The position numbers and the translations under genes are program-made. The notes below the pieces were generated by a model that saw only the letters and a program-made list of their open reading frames with translations, was not told the origin of the DNA and did not search any database. From Candidatus Galloscillospira stercoripullorum (GTDB taxonomy: Bacteria; Bacillota; Clostridia; Oscillospirales; Oscillospiraceae): 64,000 bases of DNA. Of the stretch, positions 2,524-40,904 are shown one piece after another (the first letter of the stretch is position 1; each line of letters opens with the position of its first letter). The stretch is taken from the NCBI GenBank assembly GCA_018715695.1, contig DVLB01000027.1, forward strand, positions 6,728 to 70,727, in the 5' to 3' direction.

Positions 2524-3585
2524 ATGAATCACCTGAAGAAGATCGCCGAAAAGCTGCCCGAGTACGGGCTGGACGCCATGCTCATCACCTCCGAGAGCGG
2601 GGAATTCTACGCCGTGGGCTTCCACGGGGAGGGCGTGGTTCTGGTCACGAAGGAGAAGTGCTGGTATGCCACCGATAGCCGCTATATCGAGGCGGCGGGG
2701 GCCATTGAGGGCGTGGAGCTGCTGCAGCTCTCGGCGGCCAAGAGCTACCGCCAGATGGTTGCCGAGCTGGTGTCGGAGCGGGGCATCAAGTGCCTGGGCT
2801 TTGAGGAGGAGCGCATGTCGGTGCGGGAGTACACCGCCTGGACCGAAGGGGTGCCCGCCCAGTTCCTGCCCGCCTCGGAGCTGCTCGCCGAGCTGCGCAT
2901 GGTCAAGGACGAGGAGGAGCTCGCTGCCATGGCGGAGGCCCAGCGCATCACCGATGAGGCCTTCACCGAGATCCTGGACTTCATCAAGCCTGGCCTCACC
3001 GAGTCGGAGGTGGCGGCGCGGCTCACTTATATCATGGCACGCAAGGGGGCCATGCGCAACTCCTTTGACCCCATCGTAGCCTGCGGCGCCAACGGCTCCA
3101 AGCCCCACGCCATTCCGGGGAGCAGCGTCATCAGCGCGGGGCAGTTCGTCACCATGGACTTTGGCTGCGTGGTGGGGGGCTACTGCTCGGACATGACCCG
3201 TACCGTGGCGGTGGGGGAGCCCAGCGAGGAGATGCGCCTGGTGTACGACACCGTTCTCAAGGCCCAGAAGGCGGGCATCGCCAAGGCGAAGGCCGGCGTG
3301 ACGGGCCGTGAGGTCCACATGGCGGCAGCGGATGTGATCGCCGCCGCAGGCTATGGGGACTATTTCGGCCACGGCTTTGGCCACTCCCTGGGGGTGGAGA
3401 TCCATGAAGATCCCCGCTTCAGCCCCGCCTGGGACAAGCCCATCCCCGCCGGGGCGACCCTCTCGGCGGAGCCGGGCATCTATCTGCCTGGACGCTTCGG
3501 TGTGCGCATCGAGGACGTGGTGGTGCTCCGGGAGGGCGGCTGCACGGACATCACCAACTCGCCCAAGGAGCTGATTATTCTCTGA
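2524..3585 (+). CDS. M24-family Xaa-Pro aminopeptidase
   Basis: Creatinase-like N-terminal domain plus an M24 metal-ligand pattern (DFG..GGYCSDMTRT, HGFGHSLG, EPG, RIED). The position upstream of efp is typical. Confidence 0.85.
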   Translation: MNHLKKIAEKLPEYGLDAMLITSESGEFYAVGFHGEGVVLVTKEKCWYATDSRYIEAAGAIEGVELLQLSAAKSYRQMVAELVSERGIKCLGFEEERMSVREYTAWTEGVPAQFLPASELLAELRMVKDEEELAAMAEAQRITDEAFTEILDFIKPGLTESEVAARLTYIMARKGAMRNSFDPIVACGANGSKPHAIPGSSVISAGQFVTMDFGCVVGGYCSDMTRTVAVGEPSEEMRLVYDTVLKAQKAGIAKAKAGVTGREVHMAAADVIAAAGYGDYFGHGFGHSLGVEIHEDPRFSPAWDKPIPAGATLSAEPGIYLPGRFGVRIEDVVVLREGGCTDITNSPKELIIL

Positions 3586-3663
3586 AACCCCTTGCCAACT
3601 GGGGAATTTTAGGGTAAAATAGTTTCGCTAAATGTCAAAAGCTTATTTTGGAGGATGAAACCA

Positions 3664-18524: not shown

Positions 18525-18566
18525 GTTTAGAAATCCGCGTTGCCGACGGTGCGGGGGTGAGGAAGG

Positions 18567-18759
18567 CCCCAGCGGGGCACGCCCTGCCGGGGACCCCATT
18601 TTTCATTTGCCCGGGGCAAATGAATTGCCCCGGACCAAGGTTTTGGGCCTGTGGCCCAAAACGCTTGTACGGCGCGCCGCGCCGCCCCATCCAAGATGGG
18701 GCCCCGACGTCCTTCCCCCAAACGCTGGAGAAGATCGCCGGGGCCTCTTACTTCTTACA
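18567..18759 (+). repeat. Hairpin-mosaic repeat, family B, inserted at the asnS 3' end
   Basis: It shares the core GGGGACCCC...(stem)AAATGAATT(stem)...CAAGGTTTTG(stem)N3(stem)CAAAACGCTTG with 37813..37954 and with the reverse complement of 27710..27837. It is flanked by 40-nt copies of the asnS end at 18527-18566 and 18760-18799. Confidence 0.85.
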
Positions 18760-20154
18760 TTAGAAATCCGCGTTGCCCACCGTTCTGGGGTGGGGAAGGA
18801 CGTCGCGGATATTGCCGATGCCGGTGAGGTACATGACCATCCGCTCGAAGCCCAGGCCGAAACCGGCGTGTTTGCAGCCGCCGTAGCGCCGCAGGTCCAG
18901 GTACCACCAGTAATCCTCGGGATTCATACCCAGCTCCTTGATGCGGTTTTCCAGCACACTGAGCCGCTCCTCGCGCTGGGAGCCGCCGATGATCTCCCCG
19001 ATGCCGGGCACCAGGCAGTCGGCAGCGGCCACGGTCTTGCCGTCGTCGTTGAGGCGCATATAGAAGGCCTTGATGTCCTTGGGGTAGTCGGTGACGAAGA
19101 CGGGCTTCTTGAAAATCTGCTCGGTGAGGTAGCGCTCATGCTCAGTCTGCAGGTCGCAGCCCCACTCCACCTTGTACTCGAACTTGTCGTTGTTGGGCTT
19201 GAGCAGCTCGATGGCCTCGGTGTAGCTCACCCGGCCAAAGTCGGAGGATGCCACATGGGTGAGCCGCTCCTTGAGGCCCTTGTCCACGAAGGAGTTGAAG
19301 AAATCCATCTCGTCGGGGCACTTGGCCATGACGGTGTTGATGATGAACTTGATCATCTGCTCGGCCACGTCCATGTCGCCCTGGAGGTCGCAGAAGGCCA
19401 TCTCCGGCTCGATCATCCAGAACTCGGCGGCGTGGCGGGTGGTGTTGGACTTCTCGGCCCGGAAGGTGGGGCCGAAGGTATACACATCCCCGAAGGCCAT
19501 GGCGAAGTTCTCGGCGTTGAGCTGGCCGGAAACGGTCAGGTTGGCACTCTTGCCGAAGAAGTCCTGGCTGTAATCCACGCTGCCGTCCTCGGTGCGGGGC
19601 AGGTTCTCCAGGTCCAGGGTGGTGACCCGGAACATCTCACCGGCGCCCTCGCAGTCGCTGGCGGTGATGATGGGGGTGTGGACGTAGACAAAGCCCCGGT
19701 CCTGGAAGAAAGTGTGGATGGCGTGGGCGGCCACGCTGCGCACCCGGAAGGCGGCGGAGAAGAGGTTGGTGCGGGGCCGCAGGTGAGCGATGGTGCGCAG
19801 GTACTCCACGCTGTGGCGCTTCTTCTGCAGGGGATAGTCAGGGGTGGAGGGGCCCTCCACAGCGATGGAGGCGGCCTTGACCTCCAGAGGCTGCTTGGCC
19901 TCGGGGGTGAGGACCACCGTGCCGGTGACGGACAGGGCGGCGCCCACGTTCTGGGCGGCGATCTCCTTGTAATTGGCCAGCACGCCCGCGTCCATGACGA
20001 TCTGAAGGTTGCGGAAGCAGGAGCCGTCGTTGAGCTCGATAAAGCCGAAGGTCTTCATGTCCCGGATGGTGCGGGCCCAGCCGCAGACGGTGACCGTCTG
20101 CGCGCCAAAGCGCTCCTGGTCGGCGAAAATCTGCGCGATTTTGGTGCGTTCCAA
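18760..20154 (-). CDS. asnS: Asparagine--tRNA ligase
   Basis: 464 aa with an OB anticodon-binding domain and class IIb motifs, ending ...[33 protein letters not shown]. Confidence 0.95.
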
Positions 20155-27694: not shown

Positions 27695-27709
27695 GGCTCC
27701 TCCCCCCTC

Positions 27710-27837
27710 GGCTGACGCCGCAGGTGCGGCGTCCCAAGCGTTTTGCCGCCAGGCAAAACCTTGATGCCGGGCGGATTCATTCCGCCCGAGCAGATCAAGT
27801 GCGGGGTCCCCAAAAAGCCTCCGCTTTTTGGGGCGCG
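27710..27837 (-). repeat. Hairpin-mosaic repeat, family B, inserted just after the EF-G stop codon
   Basis: Its reverse complement carries the family-B core (GGGGACCCC...GGGCGGAATGAATCCGCCC...CAAGGTTTTGCCTGGCGGCAAAACGCTTG). It is flanked by about 60-nt copies of the EF-G end at 27650-27709 and 27838-27896. Confidence 0.85.
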
Positions 27838-34778: not shown

Positions 34779-36347
34779 ATGCGGTGGAAATTCTTTGGAC
34801 GGCGCTTTGCCGCCGCCGCCCTAGCACTGAGCCTTACCGTCGGCGCGGCGGGCGTCATGCCCGCAGAGGCGCTGAGCGAATACTACACCCAGTACTCCGG
34901 ATGGGCCGCCGCCGACCTGCAGCGGGCGGAGGACATGGGCCTTTTGATGTCCTACTACATGGAGGCCGACCTTAAGGGGGACATCACCCGGCATGAGTTC
35001 GCCGTGCTGGCGGCCAAGGTCGCCCGTGAGCTGGGCCTCACCCTGGACTTCGACGTAGCCGACTGTCCCTTCACCGACCTGCCCTACAAGAGCAGGTCCT
35101 ATGTGGCAGCCGCCTGGAAGGCGGGCCTCATCAACGGCGTCTCCGCCACGGAGTTTGACCCCTACCGCACCATCACCCGCATGGAGGTCTGCACCCTCGT
35201 CAGCCGGATCATGGACAAGTGCGGCGCCGTCCTGCCCCAGAAGGTGGGCGGTGTGGCGCAGCTGCTGGACTCGGGCAGTGAGGGCTCCATCCCCGCCTGG
35301 GCCAAACAGGGCGTCATTGACATCGTGGGTGCCGGTCTCATGGAGGGCTACGGCGGCTCCCTGCACCTGCGGGACTCCCTCTCCCGGGAGGAGGCCGTGG
35401 TCCTCATCCTGCGCAGCCTGGACCAGGGCTCCGACGCCCAGGTGGCGGACCTCTTCACCGAAGCGGAGTGGGCCGAGATCGAGCAGCTGCGGGCGTTGGC
35501 CGACTTCGGCTACTCCGGCTCTGCCTATGCCCAGATACCGTCCTCCGGCGCCCCCTATGCCCAGGGCTCCCTCAATGACGCCTTCCTCCAGAACGGCCTC
35601 AACACCGTCAACTACGTCCGTGCCCTGGCGGGCCTGGATGCGGTCACCCTCTCCGCGTCCAAGAACGACGCCGCCCAGGCCGGGGCCTTGCTGCTGGCCG
35701 CCAGCAATTACAGCCACTACCCTTCCCAGCCCGCGGATATGTCCGATGAGCTGTACGCCAAGGGCTACGCCGCCACCTCCACCAGCAACATCGGCAGCGG
35801 CTACTATAACCTCTCTGAGTTCACTCTGGACTGTATCGATGACTCCCAGCCCTCCAACATCACCGGCCTGGGCCACCGGCGCTGGCTGCTGGACCCCACT
35901 CTCACCTCCGTGGGCATGGGCTATGTGGAGGGGCGGTGCACCACCCAGGTGGTGGACAGCACCTTCCGCAGCTGGCAGAGTTCCGACCAGGACTATGTGC
36001 TCTGGCCCTCGGCGGGGCTGTTCCCCTCGGAGCTGTTCCACGACGGGCTGGCCTGGAGCTGTTCTCTCAACCCCAGCGTCTATTCCTCCAAGTCCCAGCC
36101 CACCATCACCGTCACCGACGGCCGGGGCAACACCTGGAGCAGGACCGCCGCCTACGGCCAGATCGACCTGAATGACTTCGCCATCATGGACGTCTCCATC
36201 GGCTACGGCGGCTCCCCCTGCATCATCTTCGTCCCCTCGGGGCTGGAGTACGCCGTGGGCGAGACCATTACGGTGGAGATCTCGGGGCTCTACCTGCAGT
36301 CGGGCGCACCCAACACCATCACCTATACCGTCAAGCTGTTTGAATGA
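34779..36347 (+). CDS. Secreted SLH-domain protein with a C-terminal CAP/SCP (YkwD-like) domain
   Basis: Signal peptide, SLH repeats (FTDLP...AAAWKAGLINGVSATEFDPYRTITRMEV) and a CAP motif GHRRWLLDP. Confidence 0.8.
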   Translation: MRWKFFGRRFAAAALALSLTVGAAGVMPAEALSEYYTQYSGWAAADLQRAEDMGLLMSYYMEADLKGDITRHEFAVLAAKVARELGLTLDFDVADCPFTDLPYKSRSYVAAAWKAGLINGVSATEFDPYRTITRMEVCTLVSRIMDKCGAVLPQKVGGVAQLLDSGSEGSIPAWAKQGVIDIVGAGLMEGYGGSLHLRDSLSREEAVVLILRSLDQGSDAQVADLFTEAEWAEIEQLRALADFGYSGSAYAQIPSSGAPYAQGSLNDAFLQNGLNTVNYVRALAGLDAVTLSASKNDAAQAGALLLAASNYSHYPSQPADMSDELYAKGYAATSTSNIGSGYYNLSEFTLDCIDDSQPSNITGLGHRRWLLDPTLTSVGMGYVEGRCTTQVVDSTFRSWQSSDQDYVLWPSAGLFPSELFHDGLAWSCSLNPSVYSSKSQPTITVTDGRGNTWSRTAAYGQIDLNDFAIMDVSIGYGGSPCIIFVPSGLEYAVGETITVEISGLYLQSGAPNTITYTVKLFE

Positions 36348-36414
36348 AAACATGGGCCCGTTCCATCCCCAGGTCATGGAGGAGGGGACGGGCCCTGATA
36401 TTAAGGAGAATCAT

Positions 36415-36804
36415 ATGTCTGGAAATCGAATGGGACGCATCAACGAGGAGATTCAGCGGGAGCTCTCCGCTCTCATCCCCACGGTGAAGGACCCCCGGGT
36501 CACCGGCCTGATCTCGGTGACCGCGGTGGACACCACCGCTGACCTCAAGTACGCCAAGGTCTATATCAGTGTGCTGGACCGGTCCGACCGCGCCCAGGTC
36601 CTCAAGGGGCTCAAGTCGGCCGCCGGCTATCTGCGCCGGGAGCTGGGCCGCACGCTGAACCTGCGCGCCACCCCCGAGCTCACCTTCATTCAGGACGACT
36701 CCATCGACAAGGGCGCCCACATCCTGGGCCTTCTGCGGGATGAGACGGTGGTCAAGCCCGCCAACCCCGCCAACGCCCACATCGTGCTCGGCGAGGAGGA
36801 GTGA
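36415..36804 (+). CDS. rbfA: Ribosome-binding factor A
   Basis: RMGRINEEIQRELSALI...DPRV...ITVTAVD..DLKYAKVY. RBS AAGGAG lies before the ATG at 36415. Confidence 0.92.
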   Translation: MSGNRMGRINEEIQRELSALIPTVKDPRVTGLISVTAVDTTADLKYAKVYISVLDRSDRAQVLKGLKSAAGYLRRELGRTLNLRATPELTFIQDDSIDKGAHILGLLRDETVVKPANPANAHIVLGEEE

Positions 36805-37757
36805 CCATGACCATCCAGGAGGCCGCCGCCTTCCTCGCCGCCCACGACGGCTATCTCATTCTCACCCATGTCCGGCCCGACGGGGACACGGTGGGCTCCG
36901 CCGCCGCTCTGTGCCGGGGTCTCCGGCAGCTGGGCAAGCGGGCCTTCGTGCTGCCCAATCCCGAGGCTACCGCCCTCTTCACCCCCTATTTTGAGGGCCT
37001 GCTCTCTCCCGAGGGCTTTGCGCCTGATACAGTGGTGTCAGTGGACATCGCCGCCCGTTCCCTCTTTCCGAAAAACGCGGAGCCCTATGTGGAGCGGGTG
37101 GATCTGGCCATTGACCACCACCCCTCCCAGGAGTTTTTCGCCCGGGAGACCTGTCTGGACAGCGGTCGGGCTGCCTGCGGGGAGCTGATGTATGACATTC
37201 TCCGGGAGCTGGGCCCCCTGAGCGCCGAGATGGGAGAGGCTCTCTATGTGGCCGTGTCCACCGACTGCGGCTGCTTTGTTTACAGCAACACCACCCCCGA
37301 CACCCACCGGGTGGCGGCCGCGCTCATGGAGACCGGCTTTGACGCCTTCCCTGTAAACCGCCGCTTCTTCCGCACCAAGTCCTTCAAGCGGCTGAAGCTG
37401 GAGGGGATGCTCACCGAGGGCATGGAGCTGCGGGACGGCGGTTCCACCGCTCTGGTCTTCCTCACCATCGCCATGGTGGACGCTCTGCAGGCCACCGAGG
37501 AGGACATGGACGACATCTCCGCCTTCGTAGGTCAGATCGAGGGAGTACGCACCGGGGCCACCCTGAAGGAGACCCGGGACGGGAACGTGAAGATCTCACT
37601 GCGCACCGACCCCGCCGACCTCAACGCCAGCGCCGTGTGCGCTCTGCTGGGGGGCGGCGGCCACGCCGCCGCCAGCGGTGCCATGCTCCGGGGAGTCACC
37701 ATGGCCCAAGCCCGGCAGGCCTTGGTGGACGCCATGGAGAAGGTGCGCCATGGCTGA
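36801..37757 (+). CDS. nrnA: DHH/DHHA1 phosphoesterase (NrnA-type oligoribonuclease/pAp phosphatase)
   Basis: HVRPDGDTVGS, AIDHHPS and GGGHAAASG motifs. The start overlaps the rbfA stop. Confidence 0.85.
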   Translation: MTMTIQEAAAFLAAHDGYLILTHVRPDGDTVGSAAALCRGLRQLGKRAFVLPNPEATALFTPYFEGLLSPEGFAPDTVVSVDIAARSLFPKNAEPYVERVDLAIDHHPSQEFFARETCLDSGRAACGELMYDILRELGPLSAEMGEALYVAVSTDCGCFVYSNTTPDTHRVAAALMETGFDAFPVNRRFFRTKSFKRLKLEGMLTEGMELRDGGSTALVFLTIAMVDALQATEEDMDDISAFVGQIEGVRTGATLKETRDGNVKISLRTDPADLNASAVCALLGGGGHAAASGAMLRGVTMAQARQALVDAMEKVRHG

Positions 37758-37812
37758 CGGCATCCTCATCATCGACAAGCCCGCCGCTTGGACAAGCATG
37801 GACGTATGCGCC

Positions 37813-37954
37813 CCACGCCCAAGGATGGGCGCGGGGACCCCTAAGATTTTCTCATCCTCGGCGGAAATGAATTCCGCCTGCGGCAAGGTTTTGCCTCCGG
37901 CAAAACGCTTGTACGGCGCAAAAGCGCCGGATCTTGGCGCACGGGAGGCTCTCT
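37813..37954 (+). repeat. Hairpin-mosaic repeat, family B, inserted 63 nt into the ancestral truB 5' end
   Basis: It carries the family-B core (GGGGACCCC...GGCGGAAATGAATTCCGCC...CAAGGTTTTGCCTCCGGCAAAACGCTTGTACGGCGC). It is flanked by 63-nt copies of the truB start at 37750-37812 and 37955-38017. Confidence 0.85.
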
Positions 37955-38827
37955 ATGGCTGACGGCATCCTCATCATCGACAAGCCCTCCGGGTGGACAA
38001 GCATGGACGTGTGCGCCAAGCTGCGGGGCGTGTTCCACGAAAAGCGCATCGGCCACGGCGGCACTCTGGACCCCATGGCCACGGGGGTGCTGCCCGTCTT
38101 CATCGGCCGGGCCACCCGGGCAGTGGAGTTTGCGGACAAATCCGACAAGGAATATGTGGCCCAGTTACAACTGGGCGTGATCACCAACACCCAGGATATG
38201 AGCGGCACGGTACTGGAGCAGCGGCCGGTTTCCGTGACGGAGGAGGCGCTGGACGGGGCACTCTCCCTCTTCCGGGGGGAGATCGACCAGGTGCCCCCCA
38301 TGTACTCCGCCATCAAGATCGGCGGACAGAAGCTCTACGAGCTGGCCCGGAAGGGCCATGAGGTGGAGCGGCCGCCCCGGCGGGTCACCATCCGCTCCCT
38401 GACGGTGGAGAGGCGGGAGGCTCCCGACCGCTTCACCCTGCGCGTGCGCTGTTCTAAAGGTACCTATGTACGCACCCTCTGCCACGACATCGGGCAGGCC
38501 CTGGGCTGCGGCGGGTGCATGGCCTCTTTGCGCCGGACCGAGGCGGCGGGCTTTTCTTTGTCAGACGCCGTTACCCTGGAGCAGGTGCTTGAGGCCGAAG
38601 ATCCCCTTGCCCTCCTGCTGCCGGTGGACGCCTATTTTGCCGGCCGGCCCATGCTCATCCTGCGGGGAGCGGAGGAGAAGAAGCTGCGCAACGGCATGAC
38701 CCTGACCGCCCCGCCGCAGCTCTCCCCGGGCGAGCTGCGCGTCTATGGCGAGAACGGGGAATTCCTCGCCCTGTGCCGCTGCGACGGTGGGCGGCTGATT
38801 ACCATCAAAAGTTTTTTCAAGGTGTGA
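37955..38827 (+). CDS. truB: tRNA pseudouridine(55) synthase
   Basis: MADGILIIDKPSGWTSMDV...HGGTLDPMATGVLPV. GGGAGG lies 6 nt before the ATG at 37955. Confidence 0.92.
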   Translation: MADGILIIDKPSGWTSMDVCAKLRGVFHEKRIGHGGTLDPMATGVLPVFIGRATRAVEFADKSDKEYVAQLQLGVITNTQDMSGTVLEQRPVSVTEEALDGALSLFRGEIDQVPPMYSAIKIGGQKLYELARKGHEVERPPRRVTIRSLTVERREAPDRFTLRVRCSKGTYVRTLCHDIGQALGCGGCMASLRRTEAAGFSLSDAVTLEQVLEAEDPLALLLPVDAYFAGRPMLILRGAEEKKLRNGMTLTAPPQLSPGELRVYGENGEFLALCRCDGGRLITIKSFFKV

Positions 38828-38835
38828 TAAAATCC

Positions 38836-39744
38836 ATGAACAACCCCAAACGCGTCATCGCCCTAGGCTTCTTCGACGGGGTCCACCTGGGTCACGGAGC
38901 GCTCCTCCGCCGGGTTTCAGAAGCCGCCGAAGTCCTGGGCGCCACCCCCGCGGCTTTCACCTTTGACCGCCATCCCGGCAGTGCCATCACCGGACACCCC
39001 ACCCCCCTGCTCACCTCGGTGGAGGACCGGGCGGGGCTCATGCGCCGGCTCTACGGCATCCAGGAGGTCATCGTGGCCCCCTTTGAAGCTATGCAGCGCA
39101 TGGACTGGGAGGACTTTGTGACCGACTACCTCTCCCGGGAGCTGGGCGTGGTCCATGCGGTGGCGGGGCATGACTTCCACTTCGGCTACATGGGCCAGGG
39201 CAGTCCCGAGCGGCTGAAGGCCAAGTGCGCTCAGCTGGGCATGGGCTGCGACATCATCCCCCCGGTGACGGTAGAGGGCCGGACGGTCTCCTCCACCTAC
39301 ATCCGCACGCTGGTTGCCCAGGGGGAGATGGAGCGCTCGGCCCTGTTCCTGGGCCACCCCTATACCCTCACCGACACCGTCTCCCACGGCAAGAAGCTGG
39401 GCTCCACCCTGGGCTTCCCCACGGTGAACCTCCGCTTCCAGCCCGGAGTGCTGGTTCCCGCCCGGGGCGTGTACGCCACCCGGGTGTGGTTTGAAAACGG
39501 GGAGAGCCGTCTTGCCGTCACCAACGTGGGAGTGCGTCCCACGGTGGACGAGAACGGCGAAGTCAATGTGGAGGGCTATCTTCTGGACTTTGACGGCGAT
39601 CTCTACGGGCAGCGCGTGCGCATGGAGTTTTTCCGCCACCTGCGCGGTGAGGAGAAATTTCCTTCCCTGGAGGCGCTGCGCCGGGAGGTGGAGCACAACG
39701 CCCAGCAGACCCGGGACTATTTCGCAAACCTCCCTCAGCAATAA
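38836..39744 (+). CDS. ribF: Bifunctional riboflavin kinase / FMN adenylyltransferase
   Basis: Start at MNNPKRVIALGFFDGVHLGH. The C-terminal kinase region has GFPTVN...GVY...EGYLLDF motifs. Confidence 0.9.
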   Translation: MNNPKRVIALGFFDGVHLGHGALLRRVSEAAEVLGATPAAFTFDRHPGSAITGHPTPLLTSVEDRAGLMRRLYGIQEVIVAPFEAMQRMDWEDFVTDYLSRELGVVHAVAGHDFHFGYMGQGSPERLKAKCAQLGMGCDIIPPVTVEGRTVSSTYIRTLVAQGEMERSALFLGHPYTLTDTVSHGKKLGSTLGFPTVNLRFQPGVLVPARGVYATRVWFENGESRLAVTNVGVRPTVDENGEVNVEGYLLDFDGDLYGQRVRMEFFRHLRGEEKFPSLEALRREVEHNAQQTRDYFANLPQQ

Positions 39745-39790
39745 AAAGAGCGCGCAGGCCGCTTGGCCTGCGCGCTCTCTTCATTTTCTT
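39744..39790. terminator. Bidirectional terminator (ribF / LCP gene)
   Basis: AGAGCGCGCAGGCC-GCTT-GGCCTGCGCGCTCT with an A-run on the left and a T-rich tract on the right. Confidence 0.75.
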
Positions 39791-40904
39791 AAGCGGCGGG
39801 TTTCTGGAAGATGTTGAGTTCCTCCAGCTCCAGGTCCTCCTCATAGGGGTTGAGAATGGTGTTGACCGTCTCCAGCGTCTTGTCGGGGTAGAGCTGGTAG
39901 ACACTGGCTCCCTTGTAGCTCACCGCGCCGTTGCCCTCCAGGGTGGCAGTGGTGATGTTGTTGGGAAGGTCCACACTCTGATAGGCCTTGCTGGCAAACC
40001 AGAGCATGTCGTTGACGGTCAGATTGGTGGTGACGTTCTCGTTGGCGATCTCGATGTACTCGTTGATCCTGGTAAGGCTCCCCCAGGAGAGCATCTTCTT
40101 CCCGATGGCCATGAGCAGCTGCTGCTGGGTGCGGGTACGGCCGATGTCCGAATCGGGGTAGGCGGCGTAGTAGCCGCCGTTGACGTTGGGGTCCCCGTCG
40201 TTGTTCTGGCGGCAACGGGCGATCTCCATGACCTGCTGTCCGGTAAGGCCGTAGTACATCTGGGGCTCATAGTGGATATGCAGATTTTGGGTAGGATCGT
40301 CGTAGCTCATGTGGACGGGGACCTGGAAGTCAATGCCGCCCACCGCGTCCACCAGGCGGATGAAGCCGTTGAGGTTGACCCGGACGGTATAGTCGATGGG
40401 GATACCCAGCAGATCGGTCACCGCCGCCTTAAGCTCATCCATGCCGCCGTAAGAGTTGGCGGCGTTGATCTTGATGTAGCTGTGGCCGTTTACCTCCCGG
40501 TTGACCAGGGTGTCCCGGGGGATGGAGACCATGCCCACGGACTGGTTCGGCACGTCGTAGGTGACCACCATGATGGTGTCGGTATTGCCACCGGTGGCAT
40601 CGGTGGCCGCCAGCAGGAAGGTATAGACCTGCTTGCGCCGCTCATGGACCGGCCCGGGGTCCGGGGTGAGCTGGCTCTCATCGATCTCGGTATTGGGATC
40701 GTCGGTGGGCGTGTCCACACCGGCGGTGGGCGGGGCAGCCATCTCAGGCTCCCGGATGGCCAGCACCACTCCCACATAGACCGCTACAATGATGGCCGAG
40801 ATTACCACCAAGGTCCGATATGCGTACCGGAGGACCCGCTGCCAGACGGGACTGCCCGGTTTCTTTTTCTGTACGCGCTTTCCTTGCGTGGTCACTGTGC
40901 TCAC
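39789..40904 (-). CDS. LCP-family (LytR-CpsA-Psr) cell-envelope glycopolymer transferase
   Basis: N-terminal TM anchor and TDTIMVVTYD...VSIPRDT motifs. Confidence 0.85.
   Translation of the reverse strand: MSTVTTQGKRVQKKKPGSPVWQRVLRYAYRTLVVISAIIVAVYVGVVLAIREPEMAAPPTAGVDTPTDDPNTEIDESQLTPDPGPVHERRKQVYTFLLAATDATGGNTDTIMVVTYDVPNQSVGMVSIPRDTLVNREVNGHSYIKINAANSYGGMDELKAAVTDLLGIPIDYTVRVNLNGFIRLVDAVGGIDFQVPVHMSYDDPTQNLHIHYEPQMYYGLTGQQVMEIARCRQNNDGDPNVNGGYYAAYPDSDIGRTRTQQQLLMAIGKKMLSWGSLTRINEYIEIANENVTTNLTVNDMLWFASKAYQSVDLPNNITTATLEGNGAVSYKGASVYQLYPDKTLETVNTILNPYEEDLELEELNIFQKPAA

Follow-up and report, generated by a model that had tools for sequence, protein, structure and literature searches.

Gene ends that are restored by an inserting element are known, for example, from prophage e14 or phage 21 in icd of E. 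coli, which integrate and rebuild the terminus of the gene that they enter. Recognition by an internal nucleic acid is known from IS200/IS605 (IS608), with internal DNA guides, and from IS110/IS1111, with bridge/seek RNAs, which recognise the cleavage or crossover sequence; to our knowledge, the known elements of these two groups carry no copy of a target gene end. IS1634 and IS1549 have long direct repeats, the duplications made by IS1634 being reportedly also variable, and insertion with long target duplication was reportedly described by Nobusato in 2000. We know of no polarity rule, guide or recurrent insertion at the same site reported for either. Mycobacterial interspersed repetitive units (MIRUs) were reportedly described by Supply and colleagues in 1997.

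The insert analysed here lies at the 5′ end of truB, belongs to a repeat family that we call family-B, and resembles each of these systems in part. As with gene-end-restoring integrative elements, the inserted DNA gives the working end and displaces the original as a direct repeat, and the family-B copies of gene 3′ ends differ mostly at silent sites. However, the family-B insert is 142 nt long, non-coding and without an integrase, and its core is found at about 16 genes, each time with a matching gene end and guide. As in IS200/IS605 and IS110/IS1111, an internal segment is complementary to the insertion point, here the putative cleavage or crossover point, and the hairpins and strand asymmetry point to a single-stranded form, but the family-B guide is 10-15 nt long and different in every copy. 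MIRUs are likewise small operon repeats with short ORFs that overlap the flanking stop and start codons, and with a tandem copy number that varies between strains; in contrast to family-B they have no gene-end duplication or guide, and the family-B overlap occurs in one lineage only, the Shine-Dalgarno sequence being the conserved feature. Variable direct repeats, from tens of bp to over 100 bp long and sometimes over gene ends, are shared with insertion with long target duplication (Furuta 2010, PMC2853133), whereas those inserts and IS1634/IS1549 are gene-sized units or full insertion sequences. Our literature search returned no described equivalent closer than these long-target-duplication insertions and IS1634, and family-B apparently represents an undescribed group of small elements, located at gene ends in gut Clostridia, that do not disrupt the gene.

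A repeat search of the window (the whole 64,000-nucleotide stretch of DNA that was analysed) identified a direct repeat, 37741-37812 and 37946-38017, with 63-nt cores at 37750-37812 and 37955-38017 on either side of the 142-nt non-coding insert (37813-37954). With a flank-repeat score of 53, the repeat lies far beyond chance: 300 random loci scored 9.9 on average, with a 95th percentile of 13. Together with a comparison of the copies, this bears out the original prediction that 63 nt of the truB 5′ end, with four mismatches, are duplicated around the insert; the mismatches lie in GCCGCT versus TCCGGG (Ala-Ala versus Ser-Gly) and GTA versus GTG. The upstream copy (codons 1-21, 37750-37812, Ala-Ala) retains the native context, its ATGGCTGA overlapping the stop codon (TGA, 37755-37757) of the plus-strand gene nrnA, which encodes a DHH/DHHA1 phosphoesterase (36801-37757) and ends inside that motif. 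The same overlap is seen at the insert-free nrnA-truB junction of a relative, G007, in agreement with the earlier view that it is ancestral. The downstream copy (codons 1-21, 37955-38017, Ser-Gly), which had been taken for the real start, is contiguous with the body of truB (37955-38827, plus strand; 290 aa, TruB_N and TruB_C_2 domains) and is called as a gene in other assemblies. Its Shine-Dalgarno sequence, GGGAGG at 37943-37948, 6 nt upstream of the ATG at 37955, is supplied by the insert, again as predicted. We conclude that truB is read from the Shine-Dalgarno sequence of the unit and the start codon at 37955, and that the displaced native start is a relic. The relic frame, as also predicted, reads through the insert on the plus strand to give a 70-codon ORF (37750-37962) that stops at TGA 37960-37962, within a second ATGGCTGA over the truB ATG. 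No Pfam match was found for the 70-aa product. A sigma-70 promoter scan of 36000-40000 gave no promoter, and thus no evidence for one borne by the element, and an Rfam covariance-model scan of 37600-38100 returned chance-level matches only (E >= 0.9), far under gathering scores.

The insert can be divided into a structured core, a guide and a linker, all on the plus strand. Hairpin H1 (37811-37841) forms the 5′ end of the element, with CCCC-A, a variable stem and C-GGGG followed by ACCCC, and has two nucleotides (CC) in common with the target. H2 (37860-37878) is a covarying hairpin whose loop, A(A/G)TGAAT, is conserved, H3 (37885-37911) consists of AAGGTTTTG, a stem and CAAAACGCTTG with a covarying inner stem, and H4 (37915-37928, GGCGC-AAAA-GCGCC) is the last hairpin of the core. 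Then comes the guide CTTGGCGCAC (37933-37942), the reverse complement of truB positions 38011-38020, where it spans the insertion point from -7 to +3; the paired target is GTGCGCC|AAG, with the insertion point after 38017. The linker GGGAGGCTCTCT (37943-37954), which contains the Shine-Dalgarno sequence, has homologues in other genera. The original prediction had neither the 10-nt guide nor the view of the second gene copy, the Shine-Dalgarno sequence and the repeat as one unit. Compensatory changes are found in 14 of the 29 consensus pairs of the family-B structure. The conserved A of H1 lies opposite C in 14 of 21 copies, which on the complementary strand gives a G·U/G·T pair, and this strand folds better in 12 of 16 copies; the A/C pairs and the better-folding complementary strand together point to a single-stranded form. 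A rule tying orientation to the replication strand was rejected, the better-folding strand differing among the three copies in the window.

Searching the 1.88-Mb genome with nhmmer gave about 34 family-B copies, and about 20 of them are flanked by repeats 30-112 nt long, much more than is seen at random loci. The 16 copies that were analysed have a common polar layout: relic gene end, core with H1-H4/5 (~115 nt), guide of 10-15 nt, short linker, working gene end and gene body. As a rule, family-B inserts at gene ends and the gene is not lost; the original prediction had seen this as the theme of three sites, and it holds at 16 sites in the genome. Among these, truB is the only 5′-end case, and the other 15 copies are at gene 3′ ends. 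In all 16, the detached copy meets the H1 end at its internal breakpoint, and the copy contiguous with the gene body meets the guide end (p ~1.5e-5 under random orientation). The guide was found in 10 copies, directly after the last hairpin, as the reverse complement of the target (score 11-14), covering -8 to +6, and was not detectable in the other 6 of the 16. Guide-target scores average 9.8 for cognate pairs and 6.46 ± 1.1 for non-cognate pairs, and there is no signal in the direct orientation. Similarity of the flanking copies starts at the start or stop codon or at most about 28 nt from it. Two of the sister copies lie in the window. One (18567-18759, plus strand) is at the 3′ end of a minus-strand gene, with the guide CGACGTCCTTCCCC and 40-nt gene-end copies on both sides (about 18527-18566 and 18760-18799); the other (27708-27836, minus strand) is at the 3′ end of a plus-strand gene and is flanked by 59-nt gene-end copies, and in it no clear guide was detected.

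The flanking repeats of the 15 copies at 3′ ends differ at 35 synonymous and 3 non-synonymous codons, with 3, 6 and 32 differences at codon positions 1, 2 and 3, and look allelic. Neutral decay of the relic was rejected as the source of these differences, since they are mostly synonymous and at position 3. Translation of the 3′-end relics was also considered as what keeps their differences silent; reading frames through the element are often open there, but in three different phases. Unlike the near-silent pattern of the 3′-end relics, the truB relic shows amino acid changes; in the source species these are Gly to Ala and an A21T polymorphism seen in six of nine other assemblies.

At least four other Oscillospiraceae lineages (G004/L170, L102, L065/L066 and L093) carry the same element at the same position of truB (±3 nt). 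The guide tracks its target: guide and target read CTT/AAG in most lineages and ATTTT/AAAAT in G004, the two G004 units differ at position -1 of the target (C or G), each having the guide that matches, and at position -7 G000 has G where L102 has C, the guides matching here too. The target changes tracked in this way are synonymous. Tandem duplication of the whole unit is also found in L102, in G004 and on contigs C75 and C119. As to whether the unit brought a foreign allele into L102, the middle truB copy there differs by 5 nt both from the host relic and from G000, the 63-nt region being too conserved to tell the sources apart. L158 has a solo form in which core, guide and linker lie directly 5′ of truB with no relic, and a 5′-truncated element is the fixed truB leader of one species cluster (L053, L057, L069, L080). 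Regardless of mobility, a conserved housekeeping gene has come to have its translation initiated from a 142-nt repeat. This takeover recurred at the same truB codon in several gut Oscillospiraceae lineages, and one species now has a truncated remnant as its permanent truB leader.

We lean, by a modest degree, towards a family of small mobile units, non-coding mosaics of hairpins moved by guide pairing, to which the insert belongs as a truB-specific member. The anatomy and the Shine-Dalgarno reading are held with high confidence, and the guide-directed mobility step is put forward tentatively. Each unit would comprise the structured core, the guide across the insertion point, the linker with its expression signals, and a copy of the target gene terminus that belongs to the unit. 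It would move as single-stranded nucleic acid, its guide base-pairing with a|b and so setting both the right end of the unit and the target, and a candidate enzyme would act in trans. Insertion would regenerate the a|b site, making tandem arrays possible, and excision would restore the intact gene. How a new guide and gene-end copy are acquired at new loci lies outside this model. As a class, family-B may possibly, though with less than even likelihood, represent new programmable nucleic-acid-guided mobile elements whose cargo is the target gene terminus and whose enzyme is supplied in trans or by the host. Under such a reading the cargo of gene terminus and expression signals would let essential genes be entered unharmed and left without a scar, and truB would extend the design from 3′ ends to 5′ ends, with a Shine-Dalgarno sequence and a start codon. 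If the guide does direct insertion, this would be a natural and very small programmable insertion system that spares essential genes.

Five genomes rich in the element, including one that is 98% complete, were searched for candidate enzymes. Y1 HUH transposase (PF01797) was found in 0/5, control genomes being positive, and TnpB (PF07282) and reverse transcriptase (RVT_1) were each likewise found in 0/5. An IS110 DEDD recombinase (PF01548) is present once, on contig C97 of G000, about 19 kb from the nearest element; the other four genomes have none, and the C97 IS110 locus has no family-B match. No longer element with family-B ends was seen among the nhmmer matches. Several class assignments were rejected on these and related grounds. 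The ends of the element are the H1 hairpin and a variable tail, and its duplications are variable at 30-112 nt, which sets it apart from a classical MITE. Hairpins and a target-complementary guide are present and may correspond to the subterminal hairpins and internal guide of IS200/IS605, but the Y1 enzyme expected of a derivative (PATE/REP-like) was not found in the five genomes. For an IS110/IS1111 bridge RNA, the recombinase adjoins no element; for TnpB/omega-RNA (reRNA), the nuclease is absent from the five genomes and the guide is an inverted copy of the flank and not the flank itself; and for a retroelement (group II intron, retron, DGR or SINE-like), RVT_1 is lacking from the same five genomes and the repeat differences are not adenine-specific. 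The working copy lies on the element side, as in an integrative gene-end-restoring element, but the insert, with 142 nt of non-coding DNA, encodes no site-specific recombinase. Long variable direct repeats (30-112 nt) agree with an IS1634-family derivative. A small overlapping ORF of the MIRU kind is present in the source species and absent from the homologous inserts of other lineages.

The repeats could instead come from an ordinary non-autonomous transposon that makes very long and variable staggered cuts (IS1634/IS1549-like), or from insertion with long target duplication, where identical host copies later diverged by recombination with insert-free alleles, with the guide as a by-product. 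Duplications of long and variable size have been documented for restriction-modification units (PMC2853133). The flanking repeats of family-B are indeed long and variable, both truB copies are host-like in each host, and in the L065 cluster the two L065 copies match two alleles, both of which are also working starts in sister strains. We nevertheless regard staggered cutting as unlikely, given a polarity fixed in 16/16 copies, an inverted copy of the insertion point in a fixed slot, copy similarity that begins at or within about 28 nt of a start or stop codon, recurrent insertion at the same truB site in several lineages, and the joint change of guide and target.

An account with no dedicated machinery, in which DNA uptake and homologous or homology-facilitated illegitimate recombination act at the element's own locus and the guide-target helix is kept for an RNA function (mRNA stability or translation control), appears improbable to a similar extent. 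It agrees with the outcome of the Y1, TnpB, reverse transcriptase and IS110 searches, with the allelic look of the 3′-end copies (35 synonymous and 3 non-synonymous differences), and with the retention of the guide in truncated, presumably immobile leaders. The predicted fold of 37905-38035 also contains the guide-target helix, around the Shine-Dalgarno sequence and AUG. However, the energy of this fold is unexceptional (z = -0.73), the better-folding strand is antisense to truB and sense for the 15 genes with copies at their 3′ ends, and about 16 loci with the same core, their own matching guide and the same polarity are left unexplained.

The 70-codon ORF raises a further alternative: that insertion was tolerated through a translational relay from nrnA to this ORF and on to truB by way of the two ATGGCTGA overlaps, truB depending on the ORF. 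Both overlaps exist, as the original prediction of nrnA-uORF-truB coupling had stated, and are fixed in all sampled assemblies of the source species, including both units of the tandem; ribosomes terminating at nrnA probably do translate the ORF. The relay itself does not look selected, because an open frame is likely anyway and the periods of the homologous truB inserts are 0, 1 or 2 mod 3 where an overlap requires 1 mod 3. The frame is open through the element in 4/6 homologous units, but this is expected about 56% of the time, elements being stop-poor on both strands (mean 1.7 of three frames open per element versus 1.0 in shuffles). Among insert-bearing lineages the stop/start overlap with truB occurs in the source species only: in G004 the upstream ORF ends 12 nt short of the ATG, in L102 it runs 19 nt past it, and in L065 and L093 it ends within the element, 107-111 nt upstream of truB. 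These last two come close to the observation that the original prediction had named as speaking against it, and a strong Shine-Dalgarno sequence is kept in every homologous linker. The relic, moreover, gathers amino acid changes. A relay is thus quite improbable. We conclude that the ORF is a by-product of the relic running into a stop-poor element, and neither its peptide nor the stop/start overlap would seem to be what maintains truB expression. The 70-aa 'gene' annotated upstream of truB in public assemblies is accordingly a fusion of the relic, belonging to no protein family.

That strain variants were joined through the repeat during metagenome assembly is hardly conceivable. The genome does consist of a 121-contig bin, with a completeness of about 74% and several contigs ending in family-B copies, but contigs with the identical structure were assembled from at least nine other samples by different assemblers, and other genera have homologous structures. 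An exact-protein look-up found identical TruB encoded on 12 contigs from other samples and assemblers, and at least nine independent metagenome assemblies have the same truB structure. Apart from these exact matches, the metagenome and genome scans contained no relatives above 75% TruB identity and no insert-free strain of the source species. The 70-aa ORF and the insert are present in 7/7 contigs with enough upstream sequence; the insert is also present in L181-L183, which begin too near truB to include nrnA. A tandem pair of units occurs at truB within the source species as well, L179 having two units and L183 beginning inside an earlier one.

Within the window, open reading frames and Pfam matches define a plus-strand rbfA-nrnA-truB-ribF operon (RBFA; DHH/DHHA1 for nrnA; TruB_N/TruB_C_2 for truB; FAD_syn/Flavokinase for ribF), which is closed by a terminator at 39747-39778. 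The sequence ATGGCTGACGGC...TGCGCC is present twice, at 37750-37812 and 37955-38017, with mismatches at 4/63 nt, and a 142-nt insert separates these two truB 5' copies. The first copy, a displaced gene end referred to here as the relic, overlaps the nrnA stop codon in ATGGCTGA (TGA at 37755-37757), and the ORF that begins at 37750 runs for 70 codons through the insert to a TGA at 37960-37962, within the second ATGGCTGA. The working copy, contiguous with the gene body, has its ATG preceded by GGGAGG, 6 nt upstream. When the repeat, ORF and motif positions were rechecked, the coordinates and counts of the original prediction all proved correct. The structure is real, since every testable contig from other samples and assemblers shows it: 12 such contigs encode an identical TruB protein, and the insert and 70-aa ORF are found in 7/7 of the listed identical-TruB loci with sufficient upstream sequence. 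Locus L179 has two tandem truB units, while L181-L183 start too near truB for nrnA to show, yet contain the insert, the L183 contig starting within an earlier truB unit.

A family-B profile built from the three copies of the window and searched against the 1.88-Mb genome identified ~34 copies of these small hairpin repeats, ~20 of them with flanking direct repeats of local sequence of 30-112 nt (flank-repeat scores of 27-105, compared with a mean of 9.9 and a 95th percentile of 13 for random loci). In 15 copies the repeated sequence corresponds to a real gene's 3' end (third-position G+C 0.77-0.94), and flank similarity there begins ~0-28 nt from the stop codon; only at truB is it a 5' end, with similarity from the ATG onwards. 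In 16/16 copies the hairpin H1 end of the element adjoins the internal breakpoint of the detached gene copy, and the opposite end adjoins the outer edge of the copy running into the gene body. The core, which has no match in Rfam, consists of four to five hairpins with compensatory changes in 14/29 consensus pairs. In H1 a conserved A lies opposite C in 14/21 copies, the reverse never being seen, and this pair becomes G·U/G·T on the complementary strand, which folds better in 12/16 copies. This pairing, together with the better fold, points to a role for the complementary strand in single-stranded form.

Further arrangements occur in the source genome (G000). Just upstream of the window (G000:C6:5026-5277), a copy has a 69-nt duplication that takes in two overlapping gene ends of an operon (TAATG), the stop of the first gene and the start of the second, and the start region of the downstream gene still comes from the 'relic' copy. 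At G000:C75:9559-9989 and G000:C119:4276-4696, two to three units are arrayed in tandem, and each unit joins a shorter element variant to a gene end. A sub-family whose 5' module differs (TTTTTGGGTTTCGCCGCCCAAAGGGCGGCTCCACCC; C90:710-1003, C100:18561-18652, C105:84-180, C115:8873-8979, C52:18039-18136 and C79:7978-8069) lies after terminators or a tRNA 3' end, mostly without flanking duplication.

In 10/16 copies the reverse complement of the target is found in the tail directly 3' of the last hairpin, covering ~ -8 to +6 around the insertion point. This guide scores 11-14 in those ten copies, except at truB (10), and over all 16 copies the cognate guide-target mean is 9.8 versus 6.46 ± 1.1 for non-cognate pairs. 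Across the same 16 copies there was no guide-like signal in the direct orientation, and element parts other than the guide had no match to their own flanks. The truB guide CTTGGCGCAC (37933-37942) pairs with GTGCGCC|AAG (38011-38020), and guide and target were also found as inverted repeat I1 in a repeat search. In order, the full layout runs from the relic gene end through core, guide and a linker of 0-41 nt to the working gene end and the gene body.

Taxonomically the organism is placed in the Oscillospiraceae, close to Lawsonibacter, Pseudoflavonifractor and Flintibacter. In most relatives, for example G024, G007 and G016, the nrnA-truB junction is insert-free, and the same ATGGCTGA overlap is present in that of G007. 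In a set of 160 truB loci taken from genomes and metagenomes, four lineages carry this element at the truB position seen here, after nt 60-63; it is in tandem in G004/L170, with the first unit 5'-truncated and fused to the nrnA stop, forms two full units at L102, and is also seen at L065/L066 and L093. The breakpoint differs by 3 nt between two lineage groups, an argument for multiple insertion events. The guide follows the sequence of its host, with CTT against AAG in most lineages and ATTTT against AAAAT in G004. The two G004 units differ G/C in the guide, in exact agreement with the C/G difference at the final base of the truB copy that each unit carries, and the L102 guide has a terminal G facing C at -7, a position at which the G000 guide has C and its target G; all of the tracked target changes are synonymous.

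Other arrangements are found at truB. At L158 core, guide and linker directly precede truB without a relic, and in one Oscillospiraceae species cluster (L053, L057, L069, L080) a 5'-truncated H3-H4-guide-linker is a fixed leader carrying the truB Shine-Dalgarno (positions ~1425-1500), which looks like a domesticated element. The sister strains L065 and L066 have an additional full unit at the target of the guide, and the two truB copies of L065 match two alleles that are both working starts in sister strains. Upstream of its truB units (1380-1455), L065 has a small Zn-ribbon-like ORF, not nrnA, and the truncation point of the element also differs, suggestive of a rearrangement there.

Comparison of the two flanking copies across the 15 gene 3' ends gives 3, 6 and 32 differing sites for codon positions 1, 2 and 3, a pattern that rules out neutral relic decay; the non-coding part differs at 20/103 nt. 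As neutral decay cannot yield 35 synonymous to 3 non-synonymous differing codons, both copies must, judging from these sequences, have histories as working gene ends. The silent differences fit a working copy carried in with the unit from another strain, and equally a relic and working copy overwritten by recombination with insert-free alleles. The truB pair is unlike these, with two adjacent amino-acid differences in this species. One is Gly to Ala in the relic, where all examined relatives have Gly, Asp or Glu, and the relic has an A21T polymorphism in 6/9 other assemblies; it behaves as unconstrained sequence in this species.

We favour, with low to moderate confidence, a polar, single-strand mechanism directed by the guide. 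In it the guide would set the right end of the unit as well as the target, the carried gene end would keep the target gene intact, and the target site would be regenerated on insertion, hence tandem arrays; excision is predicted to be scarless. Tandem arrays, recurrent same-site insertion and guide-target covariation, all predictions of the model, are observed. Two points count against it. No enzyme was found among those searched: Y1 transposase, TnpB and reverse transcriptase were present in 0/5 element-rich genomes, and IS110 in G000 only, unlinked to any element. The model also leaves the source of new guide-plus-cargo combinations without explanation. The sole IS110-family (DEDD) transposase of G000 (C97:19671-20141, L013) is without associated family-B sequence.

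If spread were instead purely recombinational, the guide-target helix might have an RNA role, and the fold predicted for the region of the Shine-Dalgarno and AUG does contain this helix, although the energy of that fold is unexceptional. The other rival is long-stagger transposition followed by allelic recombination; symmetric staggered cuts should give either orientation, and 16/16 copies lie one way (p ~1.5e-5). A literature search returned no small non-coding repeat described as having long gene-end duplications, fixed polarity and a target-complementary segment together. The closest comparisons are with long-target-duplication insertion (PMC2853133), with IS1634 and its long direct repeats, and with integrative elements by which a gene end is restored. 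For the guide the parallel is site recognition by IS200/IS605 and IS110, and for the overlapping small ORF it is MIRUs.

Ribosomes ending nrnA (37757) could plausibly restart at 37750, as before insertion, so that the 70-codon ORF is probably translated. Its shape is not evidence of selection, since stop codons are scarce on either strand of family-B elements (1.7 open frames out of 3, versus 1.0 in shuffles) and a stop/start overlap needs a period of 1 mod 3, giving a joint chance of ~0.2. The upstream ORF stops 19 nt after the next ATG in both L102 units (periods 203 and 206 nt), and 12, 111 and 107 nt before it in G004, L065 and L093 (periods 216, 210 and 221 nt). A Shine-Dalgarno (GGGAGG, GAGGAG, AAGGAGG or AAAGGAG) lies 6-9 nt before the ATG in all homologous units; because it is kept while the ORF stops vary, the element-borne ribosome-binding site is the conserved solution. 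The proposal that the insert turns nrnA-truB coupling into nrnA-uORF-truB coupling stands for the overlaps and the ORF; the stop/start relay is species-specific and probably incidental.

Direct repeats of 55-102 nt, spaced by 131-155 nt, occur ~1 kb beyond the truB end in two other lineages, at L119 (3441-3650, with the sequence between the repeats masked as N) and L151 (3411-3640). An unrelated second repeat of ~127 nt interrupts truB after 45 nt in G001, a relative of the same genus (L002, C69, ~3442-3660), and in two other lineages (L081, 1328-1545; L115, 1330-1545). No clear guide was seen in these three. Its layout is that of the family-B truB unit, with 45 nt of the gene start duplicated and a terminal Shine-Dalgarno of the GGAGG type, and the stop of the upstream ORF in G001 falls 1 nt short of the truB ATG.
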